From Candidatus Gottesmanbacteria bacterium (GTDB taxonomy: Bacteria; Patescibacteriota; Microgenomatia; UBA10105; UBA927), in NCBI GenBank assembly GCA_023245335.1, contig JAHFKK010000001.1:619282-683281 (forward strand): a DNA stretch of 64,000 bases, read 5' to 3'. The position numbers and the translations under genes were made by a program. Position 1 is the stretch's first letter. Each line of letters begins with the position of its first letter. This document shows positions 8,253 through 47,565 of the stretch, in pieces. The notes beneath the pieces were generated by a model. That model was not told the origin of the DNA. It worked only from the letters and a program-made list of their open reading frames with translations, and made no database searches.

Positions 8253-8262
8253 TACCACCCAT

Positions 8263-10530: not shown

Positions 10531-10543
10531 GGAATGAGATACG

Positions 10544-11518: not shown

Positions 11519-11521
11519 CCT

Positions 11522-12385: not shown

Positions 12386-12400
12386 TATAAGGGAGATCGT

Positions 12401-16203: not shown

Positions 16204-16206
16204 AAG

Positions 16207-17844
16207 TTATTTGTCGGTATCTACGACTACAAACTGCTCCGTATTGTCCGGCAGGAGAATGGTTGCGATGATTTTGGGGGAAAGTGCCCTGGGTACCTCA
16301 TCGGGTTTAGTGACCAGAAGCGTATGCTTCCTTGACGGATCCTTAGTCCAGTCAATGGCGCGGAACGAGAATCGTCCGAATCCGGAAACATCGGTGAATC
16401 CATCCGAAGAAGTGGAATATCGTCTGGCTTCCGTTTGATAGGATCGAGGTGAATAGCCGCTGTAAAAGAGAATATATATGTACGGGGACGTTTCCGGATG
16501 CGTCATGATGACCTGTTTATGTATGTTTTCGGGAGAGAAGAGAACGGGAGTAAGTTTTTTGTATCCGTAGCCCCAGCTCGCCGCTTCTGTTTTTGCGAAA
16601 TGGACGTAATACTGGTTGAGATACATTGCCATAGAGGCAAGATAACTACCAATGAGAATGATGGCAAGACCCGCCCGCCACCTTTTTGGTGTTTCGGTAA
16701 GTAACCACAAGATGCCGGAAGCAACCGCTACAGCAAATCCCGGCACGACAGCAAACATCCGGTTGCTGTGCGGGGCATCCTTGGTGATGGCGGCCGCCAC
16801 GGCTCCGATTGCGATCCACCAGAGGATGAGCTGGGCTGATTTTTTCTTTCGGTTGACGATAAGCCACGTAATACCCAGAAGGAGAAGCGGTGCTTCGATA
16901 GGATGTAGGTTCCCAAATCCCTGTATGTTATGAGCACTGTTTCCGCCTCCTTTGATAAACAGGAACTCGGGCCCGTAGGATCTAAGGTAGTTCTGGTAGA
17001 CCGTCGATATGCCGTAGGTTACACGGTTATAGATGAGACGGACAGGAGGTGCGTTTGGGTTAGGATAGAGAAGCCTCGGTAACTCGATGTTGTTGTGAAC
17101 AGTCGTCGGGTCCCCGAAAATACTGATCCCGGAAATTTTTGTGCGATCCGCACCCAAGAGTGTCGCCGATAATATGATTGCCGTTACCACTGTGCCTATT
17201 GCTACTGCGATCCACCATCGGGAGATCTTTGCCGCATCTTTGCCGTAGATACCGAAGAGTCCCATGAGAAGCAACGTAGTGAAGATGTGGTTGCCGTGAT
17301 ATGTATAGTAGGTGGAGGCAAAGAGTAAGGAAGAAAAAACGAGTTTCCTGAGAGATCTTTTCCGTATCGCGGAGAGAAAAAGGATGGAACCCACGATAGT
17401 CATAAAGACGGCGGCATTTGATTCCGACTCTACCCTCGAGATGTGGATGTGCCACGGCATAAGTGCAAGGACTGCGGCAGCAAGGAGTGCGAGCGGTTCA
17501 GAGCCGAAGAGAGAAAGGGCCAGTACGTAGAGCCCGGCAACTCCCAGGATGCCGGCAAGCGCTGACGGTAGGCGGACTGCGAGTTCCGATTCCCCGAATA
17601 GGTGAATAAACGGGATGTCGGCATATATGTAGAGAGGCATCTTCCAGTCCCCGAATGACTCAAACGATAACGGTAATATTTTGCCATACTCATCCCGTCC
17701 GGTGGTCGCAAGAGAGTGTGCGGTGAAACCGATGGCCGCTTCATCGCGGTTCACCCCCGGCGGTACGCTATCTAAACGATAGAGCCGCAGGAATGAAGCG
17801 ACAAGTATGATGCCTATCAGAGCTATTTTTCCGAATTTACTCAT
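16207..17844 (-). CDS. GT39/PMT-like (COG1807) GT-C glycosyltransferase, paralogue B
   Basis: 545 aa with 'NRDEAAIGFTAHSLATTGRDEYG' and 'RLPSALAGIL'. It sits in tandem with paralogue A. Confidence 0.75.
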   Translation of the reverse strand: MSKFGKIALIGIILVASFLRLYRLDSVPPGVNRDEAAIGFTAHSLATTGRDEYGKILPLSFESFGDWKMPLYIYADIPFIHLFGESELAVRLPSALAGILGVAGLYVLALSLFGSEPLALLAAAVLALMPWHIHISRVESESNAAVFMTIVGSILFLSAIRKRSLRKLVFSSLLFASTYYTYHGNHIFTTLLLMGLFGIYGKDAAKISRWWIAVAIGTVVTAIILSATLLGADRTKISGISIFGDPTTVHNNIELPRLLYPNPNAPPVRLIYNRVTYGISTVYQNYLRSYGPEFLFIKGGGNSAHNIQGFGNLHPIEAPLLLLGITWLIVNRKKKSAQLILWWIAIGAVAAAITKDAPHSNRMFAVVPGFAVAVASGILWLLTETPKRWRAGLAIILIGSYLASMAMYLNQYYVHFAKTEAASWGYGYKKLTPVLFSPENIHKQVIMTHPETSPYIYILFYSGYSPRSYQTEARRYSTSSDGFTDVSGFGRFSFRAIDWTKDPSRKHTLLVTKPDEVPRALSPKIIATILLPDNTEQFVVVDTDK

Positions 17845-20191
17845 GATAATTTTTTTTGACGATGAAAAGTGCCGCTGCTGTCGCCATAATACTTATGATA
17901 CTCAAAACTTCGCCCACAGCAACACTTACAGGCGCGTAGGTCATGATGACCGTGTGCGTGCCGGGAGGTACGGTGACTGCGCGAAAGGTCCAATCAGCGC
18001 GTAGGATATCTCCCGGTTTGCCGTCTATTGTGGCATGCCAGCCGGGATAGTAGGTGTCCGTAAGTACTAAGACCGAAGCGACCGGTCGTTCCGTCTGTAT
18101 AGTCAATGATTCCGGCTTGTAGTCTGTGATAGCGGCGGATCCCTCTTCTGCTGACTTCTCTATACCCGAGGGAACGGCGGGCAGAAGGACCGTCTCTGCC
18201 GGATCAAACGACGGAGAAAAGAGTTGTTTACCGAAGTCATCCGCGTTTTGATACGTCAGGATGTTTTTAGCAAGAAATGCCCGGGGTGCGGCTTTGAGAT
18301 TGGTAAATATATGCCAGTCTCCGGCGCTCATGGCCATAGCATACCGGCTGGGAGGGAACGTTTCCTGCGTACTGCCGTTTTCCAGACGATCGAGGATGTA
18401 TCGCACACTCAAAAGGTCCAGCATCCGTAAAGTATATGGGTCGTCGAATCCGTTTTTGCCGAATCCCGAGGAAATTGCGGCATCGGAGCGGGTCGCATTC
18501 GTAAATTGTGTCATCAATTTGCCGGTCCGATAGCCGTAGAGGAACTCGCCGTACCATTTAGGATACAAAGGATCATATCCTTCAGGAGAAAACATGCCGT
18601 ACTGCGTCGCGAAGTTCGCAGCTATCCCTGCCGTGCCGTATCCCCAATACCGGTCAGGACCGTGATGGGTAAGATAGGAGAGTATTTCATGATCAGGGAA
18701 TACGAGTGCTTGAGGCACAAATGGGTTGAATCGGTTAAAAAAGATAAAAAGGTCAAGCATGTGGACGATGAGTAAGAGGACAATCGCGTGCCGCCGCAGT
18801 GTCGGAATGGCTATAGCGATCCAAAAGAGCACGATCGTTGCCCCCGCAATAAGTCCGCCGTACAGAATTGCACGGAGCGCAACAGCCGCGTGCGCATGGA
18901 AGTCGGTAAAGAAAGGAAGCTTGGCGCAAAGGATGAGAAGAACAAATACAAGTGCTACCTCAAGCGTTCGTATAACCAGTTTTTTGACTGAATGTTTTTC
19001 CGTCATCCAATGATCGAGTCCCAGTCCGCCCAGGACCGATAAGCAAAACGCGAAAAGAAAAGCCATGAGCGTCGGACTACTTGCACTGAAGATGGGGATA
19101 GGTACGCGGTAGAGAAGATACGTTGCCGGATTGGCAGTTATGAGAATGCCGATAATAGCAAATGACCAGACATACCATTTGGTGATAGCATCTTTTCGCC
19201 GCATGGCGGAAAGCAAAAAGAAAAGAGGTACCAAGCCCACGGTCGTTACCTTGCCGACGAATGTATCCGCCGGCCAGTAGGTGCGCGTAGCCGGATTACC
19301 GAACATGTTCGGGAAAGCGGTTGCGAGAAGCTGCCAAGGCTGGATCAGAATTTTCGTAAATAGATTGGTGAATTCGTGAGGACTACGGGCCGCGAGTTGG
19401 ATAAGTTCGATACCGGGTATAAGCTGAAGTCCCGCGATTCCTATCCCCAGACTCATGAATATGCCCGAGGGGATCCATACTCTCCGTGGCAGCCGGAATG
19501 CGGCGTAGATGACGCTAAAGAGAATAAGATACCCGTATACCTGCGGATGACCGGCAAGGAGTGCCGAAGCGTTGCCGAGTGCAAGTACAGCAAACCACCG
19601 GGCTTTAGGTTTCTCCCGCAGAGACTCGATCGCAAGAAGGAGAAGTGGAAGCCAAAGAATGACGTGGCCTACCGTATTGTACTCGAGCCACACCGCCATA
19701 AACCCCGAGAACCCGTAGGAGAGTGCGGCAAGGAGCGATCCATAGGTCTTGCCTCCGATCTTTCGTATATACCAGTAGGTGAATATACCGGCAAGTAACG
19801 GTTGGAGGAGTGTCAGGATAGTCCATGCGGATACCTCGCTAAGGAAAAGGTACAAAATGGCGAGAGGGTATAATACTGCCGACTGAAAGTTTCCAAGAAG
19901 CGGTGAGCCCGAGAAGTTATACGGATTCCAGAGTGGTAATTTCCCCTGTTTAAGCTCATTTACCGCAAGCGTTTTCCAAGGATACATTTGGCGATATGTG
20001 TCCGGATACTGTGCCTTATTGGGGATGCCGCCAGCGGCATACCCGAGATATGCGGCAGAGCGCCAGGGTTGGAAGTCGCTTGCCAGGCCGTCACCGGGAA
20101 ACGGCACTTTCCCGAAGAGAACTGTTTGGTAAAAAAATATCGCGGTAACGGCGATAAGGATCCCGGTAACCCAGACGAATTCTTTTCTCAT
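17837..20191 (-). CDS. YfhO-family GT-C membrane glycosyltransferase (paralogue 3)
   Basis: 784 aa. The C-terminus 'YYPGWHATIDGKPGDILRADWTFRAVTVPPGTHTVIMTYAP' is followed by a TM anchor. Confidence 0.75.
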   Translation of the reverse strand: MRKEFVWVTGILIAVTAIFFYQTVLFGKVPFPGDGLASDFQPWRSAAYLGYAAGGIPNKAQYPDTYRQMYPWKTLAVNELKQGKLPLWNPYNFSGSPLLGNFQSAVLYPLAILYLFLSEVSAWTILTLLQPLLAGIFTYWYIRKIGGKTYGSLLAALSYGFSGFMAVWLEYNTVGHVILWLPLLLLAIESLREKPKARWFAVLALGNASALLAGHPQVYGYLILFSVIYAAFRLPRRVWIPSGIFMSLGIGIAGLQLIPGIELIQLAARSPHEFTNLFTKILIQPWQLLATAFPNMFGNPATRTYWPADTFVGKVTTVGLVPLFFLLSAMRRKDAITKWYVWSFAIIGILITANPATYLLYRVPIPIFSASSPTLMAFLFAFCLSVLGGLGLDHWMTEKHSVKKLVIRTLEVALVFVLLILCAKLPFFTDFHAHAAVALRAILYGGLIAGATIVLFWIAIAIPTLRRHAIVLLLIVHMLDLFIFFNRFNPFVPQALVFPDHEILSYLTHHGPDRYWGYGTAGIAANFATQYGMFSPEGYDPLYPKWYGEFLYGYRTGKLMTQFTNATRSDAAISSGFGKNGFDDPYTLRMLDLLSVRYILDRLENGSTQETFPPSRYAMAMSAGDWHIFTNLKAAPRAFLAKNILTYQNADDFGKQLFSPSFDPAETVLLPAVPSGIEKSAEEGSAAITDYKPESLTIQTERPVASVLVLTDTYYPGWHATIDGKPGDILRADWTFRAVTVPPGTHTVIMTYAPVSVAVGEVLSIISIMATAAALFIVKKNYHE

Positions 20192-20194
20192 ACG

Positions 20195-21823
20195 TCAGCG
20201 TTTTTTCTTTTGAGGCCAAAGAAAAGAAAAAGCAATAATGATAAGCGTCGAGACGGTCGTGATGTCGGCAGCCGTCCGTAACGGAGTCTCTCCGAAGGAT
20301 ACGGTGACATGATGTGTGCCGGGAGTCAAATGAAAGGTGATGTTGCCGCGATGATTTTGGTCCTGAAACTCTATAGGGATTTTGGTCGTATCGCTATAGA
20401 CTCTCCAGCCCGGATAATATTGCGTATTGTCGAGTATTTGGACTTCAGATTCTGCGATGACGGTGTATGTGTGTACGGTTTCTTTTTTGATCACATCAAG
20501 GATTTTACCTTTGCCGGCGATGAGCTCAACCGGTGCCTTAGGGAAGCTTCCTGCCGGTCCCGCTGACCACACGAGATTGGTTTCCCCGAAAAATGTCGAA
20601 TCCAGAGGATAATTCCAGTAATAGTTTTCATCTATCTTGTCGAACCCCAGCGGCGGGCGAAAGTATACGAGCGAAGATAATACTGTCACGACGATGATAC
20701 TTACGATGAGAATTTTCGAGGTAGATTTGTGTATGAGAACAGTTCCCCCCAGGATCGCGAGCGAAAATACGGTGATATTTAAGAATCGCCAAGGGAACTG
20801 GAATGCGCGAAGGATGGAAATGTGTTCCCAAAGAAATGTTGAAGGCGCAATCATGACAAATAGCGCACAGGCGGTAAGGATAAGAGCAAACCAGACGATG
20901 AGCCTTGTATCTTTCTTCAACTTGTTTTTTATAAGTAGCCATATGCTTAGGAGAAGCGTCACGGTCTGCATGAGTCCAAACGATACGTCAACTCCTCCGT
21001 TTTGAAGTGCCGCGGTATTGGTAAGGTTTGGGATGAAAAAATTCCATATCGGCGCAAGGTGCGTTTTGTACATATCTTTCATGAAAAAGTCTCCATAGGT
21101 ATATTTGCGTTCAAACGCGACGGGGATCCAGAAGAAGGCCGTGAGAAGGAGTCCGACGCCGAGTCCGGAGAATCCGGCCAATCGCTTCGTGTTGTTTGGA
21201 GCGAACAGAAGAACAAAAAGTACGGCGACGGCAAAGTATATGAGTCCGATGGCGCTATGGGAAAGGATCAAAAGTGCGGTCGCAATACCGGTTGCGATAC
21301 TGTACCTGCGCACGTCAATTCCCTCAAATACCTTTACCAGAAAATACAGAACGAGCGGCAGAAACGTCATGGCGAGCGATTCCCCTATATCGCCTCGTAC
21401 CACCATGTCGACCAGGTGAAACGGCGCGAACTGGTAGAGAAACGTCGCCACAAGGGCCTTGTTGCGGTCTTTGAAAAATGCATAGGCGAAAAGATACATA
21501 AAAGTTCCCGAAAGGAGGAAGCTTATAAGAAGCATAATTTTGAATGACCAGGCCAGATTCAATCCGAGTGCGACTAACCCTGATCCGAAAAGATATGGCA
21601 CGTGGTAATAGAAGTTAAAAAGAGGCATGCCGTAACCATAGTTGAGTCCGCCTGCCCATCGGGGGAGTATCTGCCCGCCGGTCAAAGCCTTGAAGTAGGC
21701 GGGAATACGTGCGATATGCATCGGACCGTCATGCGTGTGGATCATAAGGGGCGTCGCAAAAATCGTGATAAACGGGAGCGCTGAAATTGCGAAGATAAGA
21801 AGATAGTGTTTAAATGATTTCAT
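20195..21823 (-). CDS. Membrane protein with PTPS-related (PF10131-like) domain and YfhO-type C-terminal module
   Basis: The track ORF extends to 21922. The Met at 21823 ('MKSFKHYLLIFAI') mirrors the start of the paralogue at 32246. It carries 'PRWAGGLNYGYGMPLFNFYY' and the C-terminus 'YYPGWRVYSD...LTPGTHHVTVSF' followed by a TM. Confidence 0.62.
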   Translation of the reverse strand: MKSFKHYLLIFAISALPFITIFATPLMIHTHDGPMHIARIPAYFKALTGGQILPRWAGGLNYGYGMPLFNFYYHVPYLFGSGLVALGLNLAWSFKIMLLISFLLSGTFMYLFAYAFFKDRNKALVATFLYQFAPFHLVDMVVRGDIGESLAMTFLPLVLYFLVKVFEGIDVRRYSIATGIATALLILSHSAIGLIYFAVAVLFVLLFAPNNTKRLAGFSGLGVGLLLTAFFWIPVAFERKYTYGDFFMKDMYKTHLAPIWNFFIPNLTNTAALQNGGVDVSFGLMQTVTLLLSIWLLIKNKLKKDTRLIVWFALILTACALFVMIAPSTFLWEHISILRAFQFPWRFLNITVFSLAILGGTVLIHKSTSKILIVSIIVVTVLSSLVYFRPPLGFDKIDENYYWNYPLDSTFFGETNLVWSAGPAGSFPKAPVELIAGKGKILDVIKKETVHTYTVIAESEVQILDNTQYYPGWRVYSDTTKIPIEFQDQNHRGNITFHLTPGTHHVTVSFGETPLRTAADITTVSTLIIIAFSFLWPQKKKR

Positions 21824-23333
21824 GGCAAGAGCACGCCTTAAGGGAATTATAGCAAACTCATGGGTGGTCGGCATTCTAAGCATCGCAACCTTTCTTCGGC
21901 TGTATCGGATTAATGTCCTCACCGAGTTTCTGGGAGATCAGGGGCGAACCATGTTGGTTATGTATGATTGGGTACGCCGTGGCATCGTGCCGCTCTCCGG
22001 TCCGACGACTTTGACCGGGCAACCGCTCGGCCCGTTTTTCTATTATCTATTGTTGCCCGGATACCTTCTATCTCAAGGTCCGGTCGGCGTAGCAGTGTGG
22101 GTGGCACTTTTGGGGGTGGCGTCCGTTGCCGTTCTGTACATTGCGGTCCGGCGCATGTTTGGAGTCGTGCCGGCAAGAGCCGTATCGCTTCTGTGGGCAG
22201 TGTCGCCGCTTATCGTGGGCGCTGACCGTGACATTTGGGAACCCAACCTGGTACCCCTTTTTGCGACACTATTTGTCTACCTATTGTATAGGGCGCATAG
22301 GGAATGGTCGCTCCTCGTGTGGGGAATGACCGGCGTCATCCTCGGCATACTCATGCAGCTTCACTATCCCAATGTCATTTTCGTCGGTATGACCGGTTTG
22401 TACTTTTTAGTCTCTCCGTTTCTTTATAGACGGAAGCTTATCGAGGTATTGAAGGCGGGTGGATGCGTGTTTGCGGGATTTCTTATTACGCTCCTCCCGT
22501 TTCTTTGGTACGAGAGTTCCGTCGGTTTTCGCGATATCACGGGTATAGCGTCCGTTTTTGTGCAGTCCGGGGCCACTCACGTGGGGAAGCGTGTGATGGT
22601 CATGAATGTCTCGGACTATGCGTTTCGTGTGTTTTCCGTGTTTTTGCCGTATATGTCAGAGAGGATTACTGCATTTCTTATAGCGGCTTGGATGGTGTTT
22701 GTGGCGGCAAGGCGGTCAAAGAAGAATATATTTATCACGGTGTGGCTTCTGGGAGGGCTCACGGGTATGGCCGCATATCCCGGTGTCGTGCATAATCATT
22801 ATTTGTATTTTCTCGTACCGGTACCGTTTTTTATGACGGCATCAGTCTTATCGAGTCTCAAACGAAAAACGATTCAATTCGTGGGTGTTATCGTTCTTTT
22901 GATTTGTTGTATTTTGCAGGCGGCGAAGACTGACATATTTATCCCGGGCCCTCATGATGTTGATCGGGTATCCGCGGCTGTCGAACAAATCATCCTGCGT
23001 GCCAATGATGTGCCGTTTTCGTTGACGCTCGTCAATAGCCTCTCGTTTTCGGATCTCCATTATCAGTATTATTTCCATATTTCCGGACACGAACCGGCCG
23101 CAGTGACCTCTACAGCATATCCACTCCTTTTTCTTGTATGCGACAGTACATCATGTCCGCAAACCGGAGATCTCACTTCACAAAAAAGTCTTCCGGTCAT
23201 CTGTTATGATGCGCATTGTTCTGAATTCTATCCCACGCTTAACCTCGCAAAAGATTGGAGATTCGTAGAAGAAGAGCCACTACTGAAAAATGGGATACCA
23301 TTGGGGCATCTATATGAATTCCGTCGAATGTAG
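21822..23333 (+). CDS. Divergent ArnT/COG1807-like GT-C membrane glycosyltransferase (DQG variant)
   Basis: 503 aa. TM1 is followed by 'LGDQGRTML' and 'QPLGPFFYYLLLPGY', which parallels the ArnT 'KPPLYYW' region. About 11 TM helices. Confidence 0.55.
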   Translation: MARARLKGIIANSWVVGILSIATFLRLYRINVLTEFLGDQGRTMLVMYDWVRRGIVPLSGPTTLTGQPLGPFFYYLLLPGYLLSQGPVGVAVWVALLGVASVAVLYIAVRRMFGVVPARAVSLLWAVSPLIVGADRDIWEPNLVPLFATLFVYLLYRAHREWSLLVWGMTGVILGILMQLHYPNVIFVGMTGLYFLVSPFLYRRKLIEVLKAGGCVFAGFLITLLPFLWYESSVGFRDITGIASVFVQSGATHVGKRVMVMNVSDYAFRVFSVFLPYMSERITAFLIAAWMVFVAARRSKKNIFITVWLLGGLTGMAAYPGVVHNHYLYFLVPVPFFMTASVLSSLKRKTIQFVGVIVLLICCILQAAKTDIFIPGPHDVDRVSAAVEQIILRANDVPFSLTLVNSLSFSDLHYQYYFHISGHEPAAVTSTAYPLLFLVCDSTSCPQTGDLTSQKSLPVICYDAHCSEFYPTLNLAKDWRFVEEEPLLKNGIPLGHLYEFRRM

Positions 23334-23382
23334 GATGACTCAGGTTTGGTGATCTTAGGCCGCTTTTAGTACAATACCTCGT

Positions 23383-24645
23383 ATGGCACTTGAAATCATA
23401 AATGCGGTTCTTCTGTTTGCGTTTAGCATTCCCATAGTCATGAAATACAGGATACTTCCCGTGGACGGCACGCCCTACTGGCTATTCGGGGTCCTTTTCC
23501 TCATGCTGACCGTCAACTGTGTCACATCGTTTGTTCCGTCGGTACTCGGTGCGTTTCGCCGCCATGCGGATAAGGTGAAGAATACACTCCTCGTCGTAGT
23601 CCTTATCATCGTATTGGGAGGCGTCAGTATCACGGCGATGTTTGATCGGGCAAAGACCGCCCCTTTGTACGGCGTCCACGACATCATTCTGCAGCAGGAA
23701 GCCGCCATGCGGTATGTCATAACCGGCAAAAATCCGTATAAAGAGACGTACTTCGGCACGCCCATGGAAGCATTCCATTATGCCGAGATTGATAACGATA
23801 AGGCCGTGAATCCCGCGCTCTATCATTTTGTCATGCCGCCGTGGTATCTCGTATTTCCGTTTGCATTTTATTATACGGTTCGGCCCGTCGTTGGCTTTTT
23901 CGACGGACGTATGGCGCTCCTTTTCACCATGGGATTACTTCTTATCGCGCTCTGGCATTGGTTCAAGGATAAAGAAGTGGCCAGGCTTGCCGTCATACTT
24001 ACTGCGCTGTCTCCGGCTGTCATCGACTATTTTGTCGAAGGCAGAAGTGATGTATTTGCATTGTCATGGCTTATCGTGTCGTTAGTTTTCTTAGAAAAGA
24101 AACGGTTCATCTGGTCAGCCGTCATGATGATGCTCGCGATACTCAGTAAACAAACAGTATGGGTCATGGTGCCGTTTTATGGCATGATTCTGTGGCAGAG
24201 AACGATGAAGCGGTCTGCCGTTTTTTGGTCTAGTGTCGGTGTCTCGCTATTCGCGGGCGCGATGATCACGCTGCCATTTTTTCTTTGGGACCCCCGTGCG
24301 TTTTTGGACAGCGTCATTTTTTATTTGAACGGAAGTTCTCTCCATAGTTACCCCGTGTCCGGTTATGGACTGAGTATGGTATTGTACTCCGCCGGAATTA
24401 TCCGGGACATCCATGCGTATTATCCATTCATCATCTGGCAGGTGCTTGTCTGCGGTCCTCTATTTGTGTTCCTCGCCCGGTCGCTTTGGGCGAAATCGAC
24501 ACAGTCACGCCTCATGCTGACGTACTCGGTGTTTCTCATCGTATTCTGGTATATGAGCAGGTACTTCAACAACAGTCATCTCGGGTATCTGTCTATGCTT
24601 TTTGTATTGGCGGGGCTTAAAGGAATGGACGAGGGAAACATATGA
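23383..24645 (+). CDS. Polytopic membrane protein, GT87/DUF2029-like putative mannosyltransferase
   Basis: 420 aa, entirely hydrophobic. The 'LAILSKQTVWVMVPFY' segment resembles the GT87 core. This is a weak call made by eye. Confidence 0.4.
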   Translation: MALEIINAVLLFAFSIPIVMKYRILPVDGTPYWLFGVLFLMLTVNCVTSFVPSVLGAFRRHADKVKNTLLVVVLIIVLGGVSITAMFDRAKTAPLYGVHDIILQQEAAMRYVITGKNPYKETYFGTPMEAFHYAEIDNDKAVNPALYHFVMPPWYLVFPFAFYYTVRPVVGFFDGRMALLFTMGLLLIALWHWFKDKEVARLAVILTALSPAVIDYFVEGRSDVFALSWLIVSLVFLEKKRFIWSAVMMMLAILSKQTVWVMVPFYGMILWQRTMKRSAVFWSSVGVSLFAGAMITLPFFLWDPRAFLDSVIFYLNGSSLHSYPVSGYGLSMVLYSAGIIRDIHAYYPFIIWQVLVCGPLFVFLARSLWAKSTQSRLMLTYSVFLIVFWYMSRYFNNSHLGYLSMLFVLAGLKGMDEGNI

Positions 24646-26306
24646 AGCATACGGCGATAGGCACCGTTCTTTTTCTTATCGTCATCCTTTCGGGAATACT
24701 TCGGATTACGAACATAGGCACCAACCCGCCGTCCATTTCTTGGGATGAAGCATCGATAGGGTATAACGCATATTCCATACTGAAAACCGGCCGCGATGAA
24801 CACGGCAGGGTATTGCCTGTGGATACGTTTGCGGCATTCGGTGATTACAAACCGCCGATGCCTGTCTATCTCACCGTGCCGTTTGTCGCCATATTCGGCT
24901 TAAACGAACTGGCAGTTCGTTTGCCTTCGGCTATTGCAGGAACACTCACGGTATTGGCTTTATATTTTCTGGTGAACGAGCTGCTTTCTCATTCACTACA
25001 AGGGAAAAAACGTTTTACCGTCTATGGGTTAGGGGATGTAGCATATTCCGAAGCCATCGCCATTTCTGCTGCGGCACTTCTCTCAATCACTCCCTGGCAC
25101 ATCATGCTCTCACGGGCAGGGTTTGAGGCGAACATCGCGCTTCTCTTTATTACCGTAGGCGTATTGTGGGTGCTTGCAGCACGTCATAATGATCGTTTCC
25201 TCTACGTGTGCTGGTTGCCTTTTGTTGCGGGCGTCTATACGTTCAACAGTGCACGCTATGCCGGTCCGATGATTGCCGCTGGAAGCGTTTTATTTATCTG
25301 GAACCCTATACGGACGGCCCGGAAGCAGTTCGTGATCGGCGTCATTATCGCGGCGTTGGCGCTTCTTCCGATCATTCCGCACTTAGTCTCGAAGCAGTCG
25401 CGGTTACGGTTTGATGAAGTGAGCATATTTACGGATTTGAATGTCGTTTTGACCGCCAACGCCCGTCGGAAATATGACGGGAATACCTGGTGGTCGGGAA
25501 TTCTCGATAACCGCAGATTGAGCTACGCGCATTCATATCTTGTCCATTTTTTTGACAATGTCGAGCCGAGATTTCTTTTCATGCGGGGAGACGGCAACCC
25601 TAAATTTTCGATTCAGGATACCGGCGAATTACTTTTAGTCAGTGCACCCTTTGTAGCGTACGGCATTCTCCGGCTGTTTCAGGATGCGCCCGGGGTGGCG
25701 TGGTTTCTGGTGTGGTGGCTCGCGGTTTCCATAGCGCCCGCTGCGGTAGCTCGCGAAACCCCTCATGCATTGCGCGTGGAAAACGGTTTACCGGTCTACA
25801 TGATTGTCACGGCATACGGATTTGTGATGAGCCTGGTAACTATCCATAAACGTCGGCTTCAGGCAATACTTCTTTTAATTTTCAGCTTACTCTTTGCATT
25901 CAACTTCGCATATTTTTGGCACAACCTGACGTCGCATTATCCGACCGAGTTCTCCGGTGAATGGCAATACGGATATAAGCAAGCCATCCAGTATGTCGAC
26001 ACGGTGAAAAACAATTATGATACCGTTGTCCTCACGGAAAGTATCGGTCGACCCTATATTTATGTACTCTTTTATGACCGGGTGGACCCGAAAGTATTTT
26101 GGGCACAAAAGGATGCATCGTTTGACGCGGCAGGATTTTATAACGTCTATGGGTTCGGCAAATACCGCTTCGTCAATGACAGCATAGGTGAGCCTCGCGG
26201 CCGGACGCTGTATATCCTGGATCCGCAGCGGGTGCCCACAAGCGCACATGTCCTTAAAACGATACGGGTATTAAACGGGGCGCCGGTACTGGTGATATTT
26301 GATTAA
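24642..26306 (+). CDS. GT39/PMT-like (COG1807) GT-C glycosyltransferase, paralogue C
   Basis: 554 aa with 'SWDEASIGYNAYSILKTGRDEHG...DYKPPMPVYLTVPFVAIFG' and the C-terminus 'EWQYGYKQAIQYV...PYIYVLFYDRVDP'. Confidence 0.75.
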   Translation: MKHTAIGTVLFLIVILSGILRITNIGTNPPSISWDEASIGYNAYSILKTGRDEHGRVLPVDTFAAFGDYKPPMPVYLTVPFVAIFGLNELAVRLPSAIAGTLTVLALYFLVNELLSHSLQGKKRFTVYGLGDVAYSEAIAISAAALLSITPWHIMLSRAGFEANIALLFITVGVLWVLAARHNDRFLYVCWLPFVAGVYTFNSARYAGPMIAAGSVLFIWNPIRTARKQFVIGVIIAALALLPIIPHLVSKQSRLRFDEVSIFTDLNVVLTANARRKYDGNTWWSGILDNRRLSYAHSYLVHFFDNVEPRFLFMRGDGNPKFSIQDTGELLLVSAPFVAYGILRLFQDAPGVAWFLVWWLAVSIAPAAVARETPHALRVENGLPVYMIVTAYGFVMSLVTIHKRRLQAILLLIFSLLFAFNFAYFWHNLTSHYPTEFSGEWQYGYKQAIQYVDTVKNNYDTVVLTESIGRPYIYVLFYDRVDPKVFWAQKDASFDAAGFYNVYGFGKYRFVNDSIGEPRGRTLYILDPQRVPTSAHVLKTIRVLNGAPVLVIFD

Positions 26307-26308
26307 CT

Positions 26309-27988
26309 ATGCAGAAAGCGCGACCATATTTCATACTGATAGGCATCATTGTCCTCGCCGTTTTTTTGCGGTTTTGGCAATTGGGGAAGGTGCCGATTTC
26401 GCCGGATTGGGATGAGGCGGCGCTGGGGTATAACGCATATTCCATACTGAAAACCGGGCGGGACGAGTACGGTATCTTTTTGCCGAGAGAGTTGCGGTCG
26501 TATGACGACTACAAGCCGCCGCTCTATGCGTATCTCACCATTCCGTCTATTGCTGCGTTTGGGTTGAACGTGTGGTCGGTGCGTTTGCCGTCGGCGGTCA
26601 TGGGTACACTTGCCGTCATCGGCACGTATTTCTTGGTTCTCAAGCTTTTTGAGGATGAGAAAGAAAAGGAGAAAAGCAAGATATTGGGGATACGAGTGAC
26701 TTCTCTAGCGCTTCTTACTACGTTTTTTCTTGCCATCTCTCCGTGGCATCTGCAATTTTCGCGTATAGCATTTGAAGCGAATTCAGGTTTGACACTGAAT
26801 ATTCTTGGTATCGTAGCGTTTCTGTACGGGATCACGTCGCTTCCCTGGATGGCTGTGAGTGCGTTTCTTTTCGGCCTTTCGTTATATGCGTATCACAGTG
26901 AACGTGTGTTTGTTCCGCTTCTTCTCCTTTCGCTTGTCATCCTTTGGCGCAAAGAACTTTTCCGTGACTGGCGAAAGGTGCTCGTTGCCGTGGTTATCGG
27001 GCTTATGACCGTAGCGCCTCTTCTTCCTGTGGTGACGGATAAAACCGCCATGACCAGGCTCCAGGGAACGAGTCCGCTTTCTGATACGACAGGACTTCTC
27101 ATGCGTACGGTGAAAAAAATAGAAGAAGATCAAAAATCGGGGAATAAGTTCGGAGTGATTTTTGACAATCGCCGTATCGTGTACGTAAAAACTCTTATAG
27201 ACGGATATATCAGCCACTTTTCATTTAATTGGTTATTTCTGACAGGAGATAATGACCGGCATCATGCTCCAGACAACGGGATTCTGTACCTGTGGGAATT
27301 GCCGTTTGTCTTATGGGGCATACTTGCGGTGTATAGAAGGGGCGGACGCACGTCTAAGCTTCTTTTCACTTGGGTTTTGATAGCTCCGATCGCAGCTTCC
27401 CCAACCGGCGGGACACCACATGCCATTAGGACACTCGTTTTTCTCCCGACATTTCAGATATTTTCTGCGTTCGGGCTGTTACTCGCGGTTTCGCGTCTCC
27501 GCGGGCTTCTTTCGCGGGGACCAACGTGGAAACGTGTCGCATTCGCGGCAGTCGGTTCCGGCATAGTCATATTTGCGATGTTTGATATCGTCTTTTATTT
27601 CCATATGTATTATCACCAGATGAATAGGGAATACTCCCAAAACTGGCAATACGGATACGCACAAGCCGTACAGTATGCAGAAGTTCATAAAGGGAAGTAC
27701 GAGAAGATCGTCGTGTCGACCGCGCTTGAGCAGCCCCATATGTTTTTCCTTTTTTATACCAAATATGACCCGGCCAAGTATCTCGCTCAGGGAGGGACGG
27801 CATCAGGCGGGTTTAAGGAAATACGTAATCATTTCGATAAATATGAGTTCCGGCCGATCGGTAATTGGGCGAAAGAAAATCATAACGGAGAAACTCTGTA
27901 TATCGGCACACCAAAAGAAATTCCGACCGGTGCGCAGTATTCCATATATTATTTAGACGGGCAGGAAGCGATGCGTATAGCAGAATAA
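26309..27988 (+). CDS. GT39/PMT-like (COG1807) GT-C glycosyltransferase, paralogue D
   Basis: 559 aa with 'DWDEAALGYNAYSILKTGRDEYG...DYKPPLYAYLTIP' and the C-terminus 'NWQYGYAQAVQYA'. It contains an 'EDEKEKEKSK' insert. Confidence 0.75.
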   Translation: MQKARPYFILIGIIVLAVFLRFWQLGKVPISPDWDEAALGYNAYSILKTGRDEYGIFLPRELRSYDDYKPPLYAYLTIPSIAAFGLNVWSVRLPSAVMGTLAVIGTYFLVLKLFEDEKEKEKSKILGIRVTSLALLTTFFLAISPWHLQFSRIAFEANSGLTLNILGIVAFLYGITSLPWMAVSAFLFGLSLYAYHSERVFVPLLLLSLVILWRKELFRDWRKVLVAVVIGLMTVAPLLPVVTDKTAMTRLQGTSPLSDTTGLLMRTVKKIEEDQKSGNKFGVIFDNRRIVYVKTLIDGYISHFSFNWLFLTGDNDRHHAPDNGILYLWELPFVLWGILAVYRRGGRTSKLLFTWVLIAPIAASPTGGTPHAIRTLVFLPTFQIFSAFGLLLAVSRLRGLLSRGPTWKRVAFAAVGSGIVIFAMFDIVFYFHMYYHQMNREYSQNWQYGYAQAVQYAEVHKGKYEKIVVSTALEQPHMFFLFYTKYDPAKYLAQGGTASGGFKEIRNHFDKYEFRPIGNWAKENHNGETLYIGTPKEIPTGAQYSIYYLDGQEAMRIAE

Positions 27989-27996
27989 GGAATGCA

Positions 27997-29058: not shown

Positions 29059-29084
29059 GATACCATTTTTCACTATTCGTTCGT

Positions 29085-30749
29085 ATGCGGAAGTTTTTAG
29101 ATACCGTCATCTCGAAAAAAATAATCCTCGTCCTCATTATGTTGCTCGCCGCAACCTTGCGGTTGTGGCAACTTGGGAGCGTACCGCCAAACACGTCAAA
29201 TGATGAAGCCTCTATAGGGTATAATGCCTACTCGGTTTCAAAAATCGGTGTGGATGAGTACGGTAAATTCCCTCTTATTTCACAGCGAGCCTATGATGAC
29301 TGGCGGCGGTCTACATATCTCCTGCTTGTGGTGCCGTTTGTTTCAACGCTGGGTTTATACAATATCCCCATCCGGCTGCCCGCTGTTCTATTGGGGTTAT
29401 TCACTATCCTCGCGACCTATTATCTTGTGCGTGCGCTGTTTCGAAAGCGATCCCTTATTTCTGAAATTACCGCCCTTCTTGCAGCTCTTTTTCTGGCTAT
29501 TTCGCCCTGGCATGTCTACATATCGCGCTTAGGGCACGAGTCGAACGCATATATGTCATTTTTTGTCTTCGGCCTTCTGTTTTTTCTCTGGGGCGTCCGG
29601 GACGCGAAGAACATGTTTCTCTCTTTTCTTTTTTTTACCCTCTCGATGATAAGCTATTATGCAGGCCAGGTCATCGTGCCCCTCATAGCGTTGGGGCTTC
29701 TCTTTGTCTATTGGAAAGATCTTACCCGCCTGGTCATATCGGATAAGCGGGTGCTTTTCGGGTTTTTGGCGTTTGTAGTACTCCTTGTGCCTATCCTATG
29801 GTCCATATTTTCTCCGGAAGCGCTCATACGTTTTCATGGGACGAGCACATTTGATCCCTCGGCACATCCCGCAGAGTATGCACAGCTTGTTCTTCGCCGA
29901 AACCAATCCGCCGCCGCCCACGACGTCATCGGCATGATTCTCTACAACAGGAGAATTTTTCCAATCCGAGTATTTGTCGAAGGGTATCTTTCTCATTTCA
30001 GCCCCGGATGGCTCTTTACCAATTCCGGCAAGGAATCGTTCAAAATTCCCAACATGGGCCTTATAAATATATGGGAAATTCCGCTCATACTGATCGGTAT
30101 GCTTGCATTTCTTTTTCACAAGGATGTCGATACCAAGTCAAAGAAGCTTATCGTTCTCTGGTTTTTCCTTGCCGCAGTCCCGGCCGCAATCGCGACCCAA
30201 GCGCCGCACGCGATGCGGGCATACGCGTTTCTTCCGACGTGGGAGATTTTTTCGGCGTTTGGGCTTGCCTATATTTTTTCGCATGCGAAAAAAATACAGA
30301 TAGCTATCCTGGTGCTTTTCCTGGCGGTCGCGGTCTATGATACCCGCGCTTTGTACACGAATTACTTTGTGGTATTTCCGCGCGAACAGTCGGAATCGTT
30401 TTACTACGCCATGTCAAAAGCGGTTCCCTACGTGTTGTCGAAATCCGCGGGCTATGAGTCTGTCGTTTTTTCTAACAAGGACAGTCTATACCAGTCCTAC
30501 ATGGGATTTTTGTACTACAGCCGTTATGACCCGTCACTCTATCAAACGGAGGGCGGGACAAAATCAGGCGGGTTTGCGGAAACGCACCGTTTTGGCAAGT
30601 ATGAGTTCCGTCCGATCCATTGGGAGACCGAAAAAAATGTTGAAAAGACACTGTATGTAGGGAATGTCGCTGACTTTCCTGCGGGCTCCCAATTCATGAC
30701 CTTCACATCTCTGGATGGAAAACCGACCATACTTGCCGTGAGTAAGTAA
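29085..30749 (+). CDS. GT39/PMT-like (COG1807) GT-C glycosyltransferase, paralogue E
   Basis: 554 aa with 'SNDEASIGYNAYSVSKIGVDEYG', 'RLPAVLLGLF' and a C-terminal 'YDPSLYQ' domain. Confidence 0.7.
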   Translation: MRKFLDTVISKKIILVLIMLLAATLRLWQLGSVPPNTSNDEASIGYNAYSVSKIGVDEYGKFPLISQRAYDDWRRSTYLLLVVPFVSTLGLYNIPIRLPAVLLGLFTILATYYLVRALFRKRSLISEITALLAALFLAISPWHVYISRLGHESNAYMSFFVFGLLFFLWGVRDAKNMFLSFLFFTLSMISYYAGQVIVPLIALGLLFVYWKDLTRLVISDKRVLFGFLAFVVLLVPILWSIFSPEALIRFHGTSTFDPSAHPAEYAQLVLRRNQSAAAHDVIGMILYNRRIFPIRVFVEGYLSHFSPGWLFTNSGKESFKIPNMGLINIWEIPLILIGMLAFLFHKDVDTKSKKLIVLWFFLAAVPAAIATQAPHAMRAYAFLPTWEIFSAFGLAYIFSHAKKIQIAILVLFLAVAVYDTRALYTNYFVVFPREQSESFYYAMSKAVPYVLSKSAGYESVVFSNKDSLYQSYMGFLYYSRYDPSLYQTEGGTKSGGFAETHRFGKYEFRPIHWETEKNVEKTLYVGNVADFPAGSQFMTFTSLDGKPTILAVSK

Positions 30750-30762
30750 TAATTATATTGAC

Positions 30763-32241
30763 ATGAAATATCTCATCCTTTGCCTCGTTGCGGTCGCCGC
30801 AGTATTGGGAATAGCCCTTCGATCTGTTGAAGTCCTGAATCATAACTACGTATTCGTATACGACCAGGGTCTCGACATGTTGGCGGCCCGAAGTATCGCA
30901 GTTGATCACAAGCTGACACTCATAGGAAGCGAAGCGGGTGGGGGATTTGCAGGACTACCGGGCATTTTTCACGGTCCGGGTTATCATTATATATTGGCCG
31001 GGATTTCCGTTTTAACCCGGGGTGATCCGTACGGAGAAATATTTGCTCTTTGGGTTGCCAGCTTGTTGAGCGTTTGGTTTCTTTATCTCATCGGCAAAAG
31101 GCTTTTCGGATTCTGGGGCGGAGTGGCGACGGCTGTCATAGCGCTTGTCTCGCCTGCGTTTATCGGCATGAGCCGGATGATATGGGCGCCAAACTTCGCA
31201 GGGTTATTTGTTGTAGCGTACATTGCCGCACTCCTGGTACGAAAGCACAAAAACTTTTCGGATGGTTTGCTTCTCGGGTTGTCTGCGGCATTCCTGTACA
31301 ATTTTGAAATACCGCTTGCGGCCGCAGCGTGCTTGGGTGCGCTAGCATACCTCATCTTCGTAGACAGGATAAAAGTCTTCCGCGTTTGGGGGGGATTTAT
31401 CCTGGGCTGTGCCGTCGCATTTCTTCCGATGGCAGCTTTTGACGCACGGCACGGCTGGCTTACAACGCGGGGGCTTGTCGGCTTTTTCCTGCATCCTGCC
31501 GTAGTTACAAAGACTGCACCGTTTGATGTCGCTGGGCATCTTTCCGTATTTCTCTACCATGCCAGCGGAATTTTTCCGTTCATCACAGGACTTCCGTTCT
31601 GGTTCTGGTTTGTGCTCCTTGCCCTAGGTGTGTGGTTTTTCCGTCCTGGCGTTAAGGAACGAGAGGCCAGGAACGGAATGTCAGGACTCGTCCTTTTGGT
31701 TTTAGCACATATCGTTCTCTTTCTGCCGTACCGGAATCCTATTTATGGTCATTATCTGACCATATTGTCGTATGTGTACGTTTTGGTCGCGGGAGGAATT
31801 ATAGCTCGTATCATAGCGACGCGCCGGTGGGTCATATTGACGGTCTCCGCCATTTTGTTCATTGTGCCTAGTATCCTTTCGTATCCCAAAACCATCAGTA
31901 CTGATTATCACGACTACGGGGGCACTGCAAAAATCCGCGGTAAGAAAGACGCCGTTGATTTTATTTACCGCGATGCCAAGGGCGCTCCTTTCGGGCTTTT
32001 GGTGTTTTCGCCTCCGGTATACACCTATCCATATGAATATGTACTACAATGGTATGCGAAATCGCGATACGGCTATTTGCCGACGGCGGGAAAAGATAAA
32101 ATCTTTTATCTATTGATCGAACCCGACCCGGAGAAGCCGTGGAGTTACCGTGGTTGGCTTGAAACGGTCATAAAGTCGGGAACGACGATAGCTTCGTGGA
32201 CATTGCCGAGCGGATTTATGATAGAAAAGAGGATGGAGTAG
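30763..32241 (+). CDS. Divergent ArnT/COG1807-like GT-C membrane glycosyltransferase (DQG variant), paralogue of 21822..23333
   Basis: 492 aa with 'VFVYDQGLDMLAARS' and 'HGPGYHYILAGI'. Its topology is the same as 21822..23333. Confidence 0.55.
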   Translation: MKYLILCLVAVAAVLGIALRSVEVLNHNYVFVYDQGLDMLAARSIAVDHKLTLIGSEAGGGFAGLPGIFHGPGYHYILAGISVLTRGDPYGEIFALWVASLLSVWFLYLIGKRLFGFWGGVATAVIALVSPAFIGMSRMIWAPNFAGLFVVAYIAALLVRKHKNFSDGLLLGLSAAFLYNFEIPLAAAACLGALAYLIFVDRIKVFRVWGGFILGCAVAFLPMAAFDARHGWLTTRGLVGFFLHPAVVTKTAPFDVAGHLSVFLYHASGIFPFITGLPFWFWFVLLALGVWFFRPGVKEREARNGMSGLVLLVLAHIVLFLPYRNPIYGHYLTILSYVYVLVAGGIIARIIATRRWVILTVSAILFIVPSILSYPKTISTDYHDYGGTAKIRGKKDAVDFIYRDAKGAPFGLLVFSPPVYTYPYEYVLQWYAKSRYGYLPTAGKDKIFYLLIEPDPEKPWSYRGWLETVIKSGTTIASWTLPSGFMIEKRME

Positions 32242-32245
32242 TTAT

Positions 32246-33883
32246 ATGAATAAAACACCAAGGCATGGATGGTGGTGGCTTGTCGTTTTCGTTCTTTCAC
32301 TTCTGCCTCTTTTGGACCTTTTGCACCCCGGCCTCCCGGTGACGCATGACGGACAGGATCATGTCGCGCGCATCGCGAATTTTTATCAAAGCATTTCGGA
32401 GGGGAATCCCGTTCCCCGATGGGCGGCAAACCTCAATTGGGGATATGGGCATCCGGTTGTCATGTTTTTATACCCGTTGCCGTCCTATGTCGCATCTTTC
32501 TTCCATACTGCGGGATTCTCGTTTGTGGACAGTACGAAGCTCGTATTCGCGGCAGCATTTGCCGCTAGCATGCTCGCTATGTTTCTTTGGTTGAGTGCGG
32601 TTTGGGGGGTGATACCGGGCGTTGTCGGAGCGGTGTTGTACGGATTTGCACCCTATCGGTTTGTGGATCTGTACGTGCGGGGGGCGATCGGGGAGCATGT
32701 GGCGTTTGTGTTTTTGCCGGTGGTTTTATGGGGGATTTCGATACTCAAAAAGAAACGAATGTCTCGGACGGGGATAGCGGCTGTTACCTTAGGGACTACT
32801 GCGCTCATCCTTTCCCATAATGCGCTAAGTATTATGTTTTTGCCGATCATTCTCTTCTATGTTCTGTATGTATCCTTCGATCATGAAGATAATCCGTTGA
32901 GTCTTTTGGTGATCTCGGCGATCTCAATCGGTACAGGATTTGTGCTGTCGGCGTTTTTTTGGGTGCCGGCCTTTCTGGAAGGGAAGTATACGCTCCGGGA
33001 CATAGTGACTGCCGGGCAGTTCAATGAAAGGTTCGTTCCCTGGCTATGGTTTATCTATTCCCAGTGGAATTATGGAGGCGGAGATACGCTCTCTAAATCT
33101 TTAGGGTGGGCGCAACTTGTCGCAATCGTCATGTCCGTTGTAGCGCTTGCGAAACGCAAAAAGGATCGTGTGCTCCTCGGAGGCGCTCTTTGTATTCTTT
33201 TTGTGTCGCTTATCGTCATGACGTCGCTTTCCGGCCCTCTTTGGATTCATGTGAGCTTGCTGCAGAAATTCCAGTTTCCCTGGAGGTTTCTCTCCTTGAG
33301 CGTTTTTGCGACCGCGTTTCTCGGCGCCCTTTTTGTCGCATCGATCGAGAAAAAGCAAAAGGTGATCGCGCTGGGTCTTTGTTCCCTCGCAATACTCGGT
33401 ACGGCCAACATGTGGCGCGCACGGGTCTACAAGACGTATCCCGAGTCGTTTTTTACCGGCATATATCACGGGACGACGGATACCGGGGAAAGCAGTCCCA
33501 TCTGGTCGATCCGGTTTATGGAGCACGAAGCCACGTCCTCGATGTCCCTGGTATCCGGAGCGGCAGTGATAAGTCCTCAATCGCGGACGACTACCAGACA
33601 TACGTACGAGGTGACCGCAAGCGCCCAATCACGATTGGTAGAAAATACGCTGTATTTTCCGGGCTGGAATGTCTTGGTGGATAGAACGCCCGCCGCACTT
33701 CAGTTTCAGGATCCCTCATATCGCGGGCTTATGACGTTTATGGTGTCACCCGGCTCACATACGGTTGACGTGGTTTTTACCGATACAAAACTGAGGAAAT
33801 TAAGTAATGCCGCGAGCCTTGGAAGCTTCGTGCTGTTTACCCTCGTTCTTGGTACAATGCCCCTATGGCGGCGAAAAAAATGA
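32246..33883 (+). CDS. Membrane protein with PTPS-related (PF10131-like) domain and YfhO-type C-terminal module (paralogue 2)
   Basis: 545 aa with 'HDGQDHVARIANFY...PRWAANLNWGYGHPVVMFLY' and the C-terminus 'LYFPGWNVLVD...VSPGSHTVDVVF' followed by a TM. Confidence 0.65.
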   Translation: MNKTPRHGWWWLVVFVLSLLPLLDLLHPGLPVTHDGQDHVARIANFYQSISEGNPVPRWAANLNWGYGHPVVMFLYPLPSYVASFFHTAGFSFVDSTKLVFAAAFAASMLAMFLWLSAVWGVIPGVVGAVLYGFAPYRFVDLYVRGAIGEHVAFVFLPVVLWGISILKKKRMSRTGIAAVTLGTTALILSHNALSIMFLPIILFYVLYVSFDHEDNPLSLLVISAISIGTGFVLSAFFWVPAFLEGKYTLRDIVTAGQFNERFVPWLWFIYSQWNYGGGDTLSKSLGWAQLVAIVMSVVALAKRKKDRVLLGGALCILFVSLIVMTSLSGPLWIHVSLLQKFQFPWRFLSLSVFATAFLGALFVASIEKKQKVIALGLCSLAILGTANMWRARVYKTYPESFFTGIYHGTTDTGESSPIWSIRFMEHEATSSMSLVSGAAVISPQSRTTTRHTYEVTASAQSRLVENTLYFPGWNVLVDRTPAALQFQDPSYRGLMTFMVSPGSHTVDVVFTDTKLRKLSNAASLGSFVLFTLVLGTMPLWRRKK

Positions 33884-47558: not shown

Positions 47559-47565
47559 TTTTGTA

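Follow-up and report, generated by a model that had tools for sequence, protein, structure and literature searches.

The 64-kb window analysed here, a stretch of 64,000 nucleotides from a Candidatus Gottesmanbacteria bacterium (Patescibacteria; contig JAHFKK010000001.1), is filled by a dense array of envelope-glycosylation genes, and seven of the encoded membrane proteins end in the same kind of extracytoplasmic module of ~75 residues. Three of them are YfhO-family glycosyltransferases of the GT-C type (paralogue 1, 769 aa, 4900..7209, plus strand; paralogue 2, 774 aa, 8206..10530, plus strand; paralogue 3, 784 aa, 17837..20191, minus strand). Two are short YfhO-like proteins of the "PTPS-related" kind (575 aa as listed, 20195..21922, minus strand; 545 aa, 32246..33883, plus strand), and the others have 1175 aa (51614..55141, plus strand) and 686 aa (55691..57751, plus strand). 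A first-pass annotation of this DNA had set the feature at 17837-33883, which covers just three of the seven genes, and had described a discrete, conserved C-terminal module, usually followed by a transmembrane (TM) anchor, that was apparently shuffled among distinct transferase scaffolds with unrelated N-terminal halves. Our data support the module, which is present in all seven proteins and followed by an anchor in six, but argue against the shuffling and the unrelated scaffolds. We put at about 70% the probability that the seven are diverged paralogues of one YfhO-like GT-C clade, whose ancestor would already have had the full architecture and in which the module, a predicted beta-sandwich, would play a structural role.

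The module is recognizable in 7/7 proteins by a common motif, in which a hydrophobic strand leads into [ST]-x-[YF]-x-P-x-W-x-[AV]-x-[VI]-[DN], followed further on by P-x-G-x-H-x-V and Y-x-P. It occupies residues 664 to 741 of paralogue 1 (6889..7122), a region also matched by the NCBIfam PgfM2 and PgfM1 models, residues 696 to 774 of paralogue 2 (10291..10527), 676 to 753 of paralogue 3 (17933..18166), 462 to 543 of the 575-aa protein (20294..20539), 430 to 511 of the 545-aa protein (33533..33778), and 575 to 650 of the 686-aa protein (57413..57640), each on the strand of its gene. In the 1175-aa protein it spans residues 1029 to 1143 (54698..55042, plus strand) and is split between strands by an insertion of ~50 residues (~1079-1130). 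Hidden Markov models (HMMs) of the module were each built from ~120 homologues of a single family and were restricted to the soluble part, so that the composition of the excluded terminal helix was unable to inflate scores; their targets were all 215 six-frame open reading frames (ORFs) of at least 80 residues in the window. These models find precisely the seven proteins, at their C-terminal ends, and nothing else below E ~0.4. The YfhO module HMM detects paralogue 2 at 2e-21 and, across families, the 545-aa and 575-aa proteins at 1.3e-6 and 7.7e-6, respectively, while the short-family HMM detects paralogue 3 at 2.3e-5 and paralogue 1 at 1.2e-4. The 686-family HMM detects the 1175-aa protein at 1e-8, the three YfhO proteins at 8e-8 to 8e-4 (5.5e-4 for paralogue 2), and the short pair at 0.02 and 0.15. 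In the 1175-aa protein the significant stretch is residues 1036 to 1078 (independent E = 1e-7), and residues 1131 to 1149 alone are not significant.

Module-only profile-profile comparison with hhalign gave a probability of 98.4% for the short family against YfhO (E = 8e-15), 97.8% for the 686-aa family against YfhO (E = 9e-13), and 95.9% for the 686-aa family against the short family (E = 6e-9). Over the larger extracytoplasmic C-terminal region, the 686-aa family (497-681) aligned with YfhO (582-784) at 98.2% (E = 5e-14). All seven proteins thus carry a homologous extracytoplasmic module. On the strength of the HMM cross-detection and the module-only scores, this includes the 686-aa and 1175-aa proteins, whose ends the first-pass annotation had called weaker and which prove to be real homologues; its proposal that the two short proteins end in a YfhO-type module stands as well. 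A resemblance by chance or composition, in which beta-rich hydrophobic C-termini share a few residues without common ancestry, is very improbable. Such an explanation could draw on the between-family module identity of just 16-18%, on the single column that is invariant across families in a joint alignment of 50 modules (the Trp of "PGW"), and on the terminal helix as a source of inflated scores. However, the helix-free HMMs select only the seven among the 215 ORFs, with E values down to 1e-8, the module-only hhalign probabilities are 96-98%, and the same strand pattern appears in two independent AlphaFold2 (AF2) models. This pattern is common throughout the joint alignment. A degenerate pentapeptide around the invariant Trp is also confined to the seven ORFs; the pattern was derived from them and hence speaks for specificity only.

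The module corresponds to the last ~80 positions of Pfam PF09586 (~756-835) and to the C-termini of two NCBIfam models, PgfM1 and PgfM2. A module profile (alignment A4) matched 55,290 cluster representatives in a library of 1.84 billion proteins, 11,001 of them at E <= 1e-10. Among the best 150 library matches are 63 proteins of at least 450 residues, and the module nearly always lies 27-65 residues before the C-terminus. In the multi-unit proteins of this set, internal copies of the module precede the start of the next unit, and a hydrophobic stretch follows terminal and internal copies alike. As a separate observation, library proteins in the range P0361-P0507 (e.g., P0392, P0411, P0448, and P0507) are 0.7-3.3 kaa long and hold two to four complete GT-C units, each terminating in a module plus hydrophobic stretch; a recurrent pair consists of a unit with a "KxTYHPxW" module and then a PTPS-type unit. 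These multi-unit proteins may be either real fusions or merged gene calls.

Structure predictions were made from alignments of single families. For the 545-aa protein, the soluble C-terminal region was modelled by AF2 from its own family only, and the module was predicted as a confident beta-sandwich, with a predicted local distance difference test (pLDDT) score of >90 for residues 432-512 and strands at 433-437, 440-447, 451-458, 462-469, 474-478, 495-500, and 503-511. Paralogue 3 was modelled at full length from YfhO-family sequences only (pLDDT 90.5; predicted template modelling score 0.92), with module strands at 685-692, 695-702, 706-713, 718-722, 725-732, 736-741, and 744-752. The strands of the two module models are equal in number, length, and register, so the resemblance that the first-pass annotation had read from motifs extends to the predicted fold. 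The full model is helical up to residue 488, continues as alpha/beta and beta structure from 489 to 754, and closes with a helix spanning 755-783. This is the YfhO-type architecture of a multi-span core, a large extracytoplasmic region, and a last helix, which was found here with paralogue 2 lacking the last helix. A Foldseek search with the full model returned ArnT and AftD (both at E = 8e-6), STT3, PglB, Emb, and DPY19, at E values from 8e-6 to 8e-3. Paralogue 3 is accordingly modelled as a GT-C fold, and the other families would share this fold by homology.

In six of the seven proteins the module is followed by a hydrophobic 19-mer (Kyte-Doolittle 1.7-2.65) and then by a Lys/Arg-rich tail. 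The predicted anchors are, on the strands of their genes, residues 746-764 of paralogue 1 (7135..7191; Kyte-Doolittle 2.01; tail RRKRI), 755-783 of paralogue 3 (17843..17929; the AF2 helix; tail VKKNYHE), 550-568 of the 575-aa protein (20219..20275; 1.73; tail WPQKKKR), 522-540 of the 545-aa protein (33809..33865; 1.74; tail WRRKK), 1147-1165 of the 1175-aa protein (55052..55108; 2.65; tail KLNKLNDKQN), and 655-673 of the 686-aa protein (57653..57709; 1.89; tail ending in WHKKRAS). By the positive-inside rule applied to these K/R tails, the tail is predicted to be cytoplasmic and the module to lie outside. In the YfhO family, P754, S756, G760, S764, and S767, in and just before the helix, are nearly invariant, and a "Y-x-P...G...S/IS" pattern is common to the YfhO and 686-aa families. 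The first-pass description of the YfhO C-termini as the motif followed by an anchor therefore holds in full for two of the three paralogues; paralogue 2 has the motif but terminates right after the module (...FTYR*). A hidden, frameshifted anchor for paralogue 2 was considered and rejected, because no frame downstream of the module holds a hydrophobic segment (window 10291-10560). Of 119 listed homologues, one is tailless in the same way (P0330, 621 aa, on a 2.1-kb contig), and it is apparently truncated.

The TM cores are related as well. In BLASTP, residues 122-416 of paralogue 3 matched residues 124-420 of the 575-aa protein with 24% identity over 309 aa (E = 7e-7), and paralogue 1 matched the core of the same protein at E = 1e-6; both core matches are collinear with a separate C-terminal match. 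Within the 48-protein window proteome, the seven match only one another in BLASTP and never the PMT_2-type GT-Cs. The Pfam gathering scores are 28.5 bits for PF09586 (YfhO) and 26.4 bits for PF10131 (PTPS_related). The threshold of PF09586 is reached in the window by the three YfhO proteins only, with 91 bits for paralogue 1 (best stretch, residues 674-742 against profile positions 756-825), 65.3 bits for paralogue 2, and 86.7 bits for paralogue 3. The two short proteins do not match PF09586 at E <= 0.1; the threshold was reached by 9/10 scanned orthologues of the 545-aa protein (57-66% identical; 28.6-52.9 bits). The best PF09586 stretch was the TM core in eight of these orthologues (~76-424 against profile ~74-393) and the C-terminus in two (profile 757-829). 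PF10131 matches those core residues too, in the 5/10 orthologues where it is also listed. In the window, PF10131 scores 46.8 bits on the 545-aa protein, over profile positions 6-313 of 621 only; the 575-aa protein has no match at the PF10131 threshold and no Pfam family above the cut-off.

Furthermore, core-only hhalign aligned the short and YfhO families over 186 columns (E = 2.4e-5) and the 686-aa and short families over 311 columns (E = 2.2e-5), and the whole-length comparison of the 686-aa and short families gave 95.9%. Global-mode alignments were collinear along the entire length; their E values are uncalibrated and serve for collinearity only. The "PRWAxxLN(Y/W)GYG" motif, which the first-pass annotation had taken as a mark of unrelated N-terminal halves, falls inside the short/YfhO core alignment, opposite the YfhO motif "LPLWNPYNFSGxP". 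An hhalign comparison limited to the first outer loop was not significant, and the proposed equivalence of PRWAxxLNxGYG and LPLWNPYNFSG rests on the longer core alignment together with the global alignment. Narrow N-core HMMs, built from close orthologues, gave no cross-family detection within the window; the evidence that the cores are homologous across families comes from BLASTP, the broader Pfam model, and hhalign. A near-invariant acidic residue recurs in the first extracytoplasmic loop, as D34 (FPGD) in YfhO, within THDGxDH in the 545-aa family, and within GD32W in the 686-aa family, which is evidence of conservation only, not of catalysis. By these sequence comparisons, the N-terminal halves of the short and YfhO proteins are homologous and collinear.

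The 686-aa and 1175-aa proteins belong to a family that Pfam does not annotate. The TM core of the 1175-aa protein is of the 686 type (686-family N-core HMM, E = 3e-23, residues 10-436) and is combined with a large ectodomain. The 686-aa protein, which we describe as distantly YfhO/AftD-like, has no Pfam match; the 1175-aa protein matches no Pfam GT-C family, and neither protein matches PF09586 or PF11847 (AftD-like). Among 120 listed homologues of the 686-aa protein, one carries PF09586 and two carry PF11847. A family member, P0503, scores 32.8 bits with PF09586 through its C-terminal module alone. At the level of sequence profiles, the link between the 686-aa and YfhO cores is transitive, by way of the short family and of library proteins that match both core HMMs.

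These relationships bear directly on whether the module was inherited or exchanged. We infer that the clade comprises YfhO proper, the short YfhO-like "PTPS-related" forms, and the unannotated 686/1175-aa family, and that its ancestor would have been built of a GT-C TM core with an Asp in the first outer loop, an extracytoplasmic region, the ~75-aa beta-sandwich, and a last TM helix leading into a basic tail in the cytoplasm. The families would then have diverged mainly through insertions and deletions between core and module, not through exchange of the module. The spacing between core and module is ~40 residues in the short forms, ~200 residues of alpha/beta structure in YfhO, and ~600 residues in the 1175-aa protein. 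For 78/78 sampled modules, the nearest neighbour belongs to the same family. Mean between-family identity is 16-18% for the module and 17-21% for the aligned cores, and the classes of N-core and module are concordant in 69/72 units among library representatives.

The paralogue array is also old. More than 20 contigs carry orthologues of both the short protein and YfhO, and gene order is kept for the short/YfhO pair and the array around it in a relative with 64% identity in YfhO (locus L001, 1-18361, against window 8206-27988). The order in that locus is PMT_2, PMT_2, PMT, GT87, a 501-aa protein, PTPS_related, YfhO, PMT_2, and PMT_2, with a further methyltransferase, GT2, and YfhO; the genes shared with the window are YfhO, GT2, methyltransferase, a ~580-aa protein, two PMT_2, YfhO, the short PTPS-like protein, a ~500-aa PMT_2-like protein, GT87, and more PMT_2.

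The alternative is domain shuffling, in which beta-sandwich and TM anchor moved together as a mobile cassette and were added independently to unrelated transferase scaffolds. We regard this as improbable. Its best argument is that no segment is as well conserved between families as the module (hhalign E = 8e-15; cores, 2e-5), and it can also cite divergent library proteins that match the Pfam YfhO model only through profile positions 735-835. Against it, the scaffolds are homologous and collinear, between-family percent identity is equal in module and core, and module neighbours always come from the same family. Moreover, in the best 150 library matches no copy of the module was seen anywhere but at the end of a GT-C unit, GT-Cs of the PMT_2 and GT87 types in this gene cluster do not carry it, and the array is syntenic. 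Together, the sequence data fit an old paralogue family that inherited its module, and exchange is not required.

Several observations nevertheless weigh against common descent with a structural sandwich. The direct core hhalign of the 686-aa family against YfhO was not significant (E = 0.09). Paralogue 2, without its anchor, indicates that the anchor is not obligatory. In three of the 72 units, which an advocate of shuffling would also cite, the core is of the PTPS type but the higher module score is that with the YfhO module HMM; these units come from distant lineages, where the two module HMMs are not clearly separated. In profile-profile comparison, the module gives a much stronger signal (E of 1e-9 to 1e-15) than the cores do (~2e-5), and there is a small probability of an ancient transfer of module plus anchor between GT-C lineages that had already diverged. 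Because the percent identities are equal, we attribute the stronger module signal to the low information content of TM columns compared with the sharper preferences of a beta-sandwich; for the same reason, a more recent common ancestry of the module was provisionally rejected as its cause. Finally, the isolated module gave nothing significant in Foldseek against the PDB (E >= 0.03), which left its fold without assignment to a known family, and PDB sequence searches with a profile of the module and one for each of the three families gave no match, so that no solved structure contains it. A match to the C381 turret protein in the PDB sequence search (E = 0.16) was judged to be chance.

A role for the module can be proposed from the known pathway. 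In the CsbB/YfhO paradigm, a GT2 enzyme makes a C55-P-sugar, and transfer of the sugar outside the cell is the task of a GT-C enzyme (PMC5836110, PMC8035078). By analogy, the neighbouring GT2 enzymes in the window would charge polyprenyl phosphate with a sugar in the cytoplasm and, after flipping, the GT-C core would pass it to an acceptor outside the membrane; this transfer is proposed from gene context, namely, the GT2 genes beside three of the seven genes. In the six proteins that have the anchor, the sandwich is predicted to be tied to the membrane on either side. It would thereby be held at the outer membrane face beside the outer loops of the core, where it may form a generic, constant wall of the extracytoplasmic catalytic chamber. 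The terminal helix could pack on the core through its small-residue face (S756, G760, S764, and S767 in YfhO). Acceptor specificity would more likely reside in the variable region between core and module.

The first-pass annotation had suggested that the module acts as a substrate-recognition cap. In a specific form of this idea, the module would be an acceptor-binding carbohydrate-binding module (CBM), a lectin-like cap that recognizes a glycan or polymer acceptor in the manner of the AftD CBMs, and the invariant Trp would offer a platform for stacking. We consider this a possible but rather unlikely role. A beta-sandwich is indeed predicted, one Trp is invariant across three families, AftD sets a precedent, as CBMs and a beta-sandwich separate its GT-C core from a TM helix that returns to the membrane (10.1101/2019.12.22.885152), and a review speculates on an extracellular carbohydrate-binding domain in YfhO (PMC8035078). 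The module also bears a weak fold likeness to accessory beta-domains of glycoside hydrolases: its best Foldseek matches (E = 0.03-0.1) are side beta-domains of glycoside hydrolase family 30 (GH30), a sterylglucosidase, and the N-domain of leukotriene A4 hydrolase. Both models weakly resemble the GH30 side beta-domain, and the GH30-type xylanase 1NOF appears among the matches of the YfhO model, where it is not significant (E = 0.89, 78 columns). No CBM family is among these matches, however, and although a beta-sandwich is predicted, the searches found no known CBM family or lectin structure that it resembles significantly (best E = 0.03), nor any PDB sequence match. One AftD sandwich is itself described as structural and non-binding (10.1101/2019.12.22.885152).

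The distribution of the module likewise argues against an acceptor-specific cap. The Pfam YfhO model, which covers the module, was built on teichoic-acid enzymes (PMC5836110), and the models of PgfM1 and PgfM2, enzymes of streptococcal protein O-glycosylation acting on Ser/Thr-rich proteins (PMC12041528), match it too. A cap that recognizes the acceptor is less likely because the module is thus conserved across enzymes with chemically different acceptors, and because it is at least as conserved as the cores among window paralogues (33-49% identity against 28-33%); in seven paralogues of one genome, a specificity element would be expected to diverge. The module is thus probably not the acceptor-specificity element. 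More tentatively, and with no better odds than the lectin-like cap, the sandwich, usually with its helix, could be an ancient domain that defines a very large GT-C super-clade, including families unannotated in Pfam, and that performs a generic mechanistic job, such as holding the head group of the polyprenyl-phosphate-sugar or controlling access to the donor groove. The functional site would then consist of the invariant Trp and the P-x-G-x-H hairpin, and the module would be neither a passive scaffold nor an acceptor lectin.

Besides the seven genes, the window codes for seven PMT_2-type GT-Cs, one GT87-like protein, and several GT2 and GT4 enzymes, as well as an epimerase, a methyltransferase, and a Wzx-type flippase. 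One GT2 gene lies directly upstream of paralogue 1 (4123-4890), another starts 14 nt after the end of paralogue 2 (10544-11518), and a third overlaps the end of the 545-aa gene by 19 nt (33865-34638). The two short proteins are 32% identical across 525 aa. The listed start of the 575-aa protein is a GTG, and its listed 5' end overlaps the divergent gene 21822-23333; since the alignment to the family HMM does not begin before residue 34 (MKSFKHYLL), the protein probably starts at the ATG at 21823 and has 542 aa.

Some further features were noted along the window. In the 545-aa protein, the linker between core and module (residues 393-432, window 33422-33541; "Y.GTTDTGESSPIWS.RFME") is conserved among orthologues more strongly than any other stretch; its identity to the 575-aa paralogue is only 15%, and it was predicted with low confidence in the isolated AF2 model. 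We regard it as a candidate specificity or active-site element. The ectodomain of the 1175-aa protein has a sub-threshold DUF5667 match at residues 691-767 (24 bits; cut-off, 27), and its gene sits within a stretch (44000-56000) in which the GC content falls from ~0.49 to 0.36-0.39 and which may be an acquired island. Residues 300-393 of the 686-aa protein weakly match NCBIfam MmpA, a trehalose lipid delivery protein (E = 6e-5), with a score far under the cut-off. Two other ORFs, 12401-14131 (576 aa, multi-span by sequence) and 34656-35822 (388 aa), match no Pfam family; the former has a 582-aa counterpart in the syntenic locus L001.

The C-terminal domain of YfhO-like GT-Cs is known; what is new here is its recognition in partly unannotated subfamilies of Patescibacteria, which would not surprise a specialist. 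Across families, no part of these enzymes is easier to detect than the module, and a stand-alone profile of it would aid GT-C annotation in Patescibacteria and other lineages. It links families that are unannotated in Pfam or misleadingly named, such as "6-pyruvoyl-tetrahydropterin synthase-related," to YfhO-type glycosyltransferases. With no solved structure that holds it, the module is a reasonable target for structural and mutational work in YfhO-type teichoic-acid and protein glycosyltransferases. As the data do not show domain shuffling, the understanding of GT-C evolution is unchanged.

Among known enzymes, ArnT, PglB, and STT3 share the TM GT-C fold with the YfhO model (Foldseek E of 8e-6 to 5e-3) and, as proposed for the window proteins, have a soluble extracytoplasmic domain that completes the substrate site. 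They differ from the window proteins in that this domain mixes alpha and beta structure and is not succeeded by a terminal TM helix; no similarity to the module was detected. AftD (PDB 6W98 and 6WBY), among the top Foldseek matches of the YfhO model, is the closest solved analogue; it combines an 11-TM GT-C core, a soluble GT-C domain, CBMs, a structural beta-sandwich, and a TM helix that re-enters the membrane (10.1101/2019.12.22.885152). In contrast to the one small sandwich and single terminal helix of the window proteins, AftD carries three CBMs plus a further bundle of four helices to which acyl carrier protein binds; neither AftD nor any other PDB chain has a sequence match with the module profile.

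PTPS_related (PF10131) belongs to the Pfam GT-C clan CL0111 (PMC7801869). The TM core of the 545-aa protein matches it, but only with the N-terminal half of the 621-position model, and its orthologues match PF09586 over the same residues, often with higher scores, and also C-terminally. Judged by these profile matches, the "PTPS_related" label denotes a neighbouring GT-C model, not an unrelated scaffold. The closest known relatives are those of the YfhO family, comprising YfhO of B. subtilis and S. aureus, Listeria Lmo1079, and streptococcal PgtC2 and PgfM1/PgfM2. Like the window proteins, they have a GT-C core, after which the last two TM helices enclose a large extracytoplasmic region, as published for the topology of YfhO (PMC5836110), and their pairing with GT2 enzymes, as in the GT-A/GT-C pair CsbB/YfhO, is resembled by the GT2 genes that adjoin three of the seven window genes. 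The window proteins differ from known YfhO in that the short forms are without ~250 aa of the YfhO ectodomain, four of the seven fall under the PF09586 threshold, and one paralogue is without the last helix. Their host is a Gottesmanbacteria-like member of the Patescibacteria, in which teichoic-acid acceptors are not established, and seven module-bearing paralogues stand together within one 64-kb stretch.

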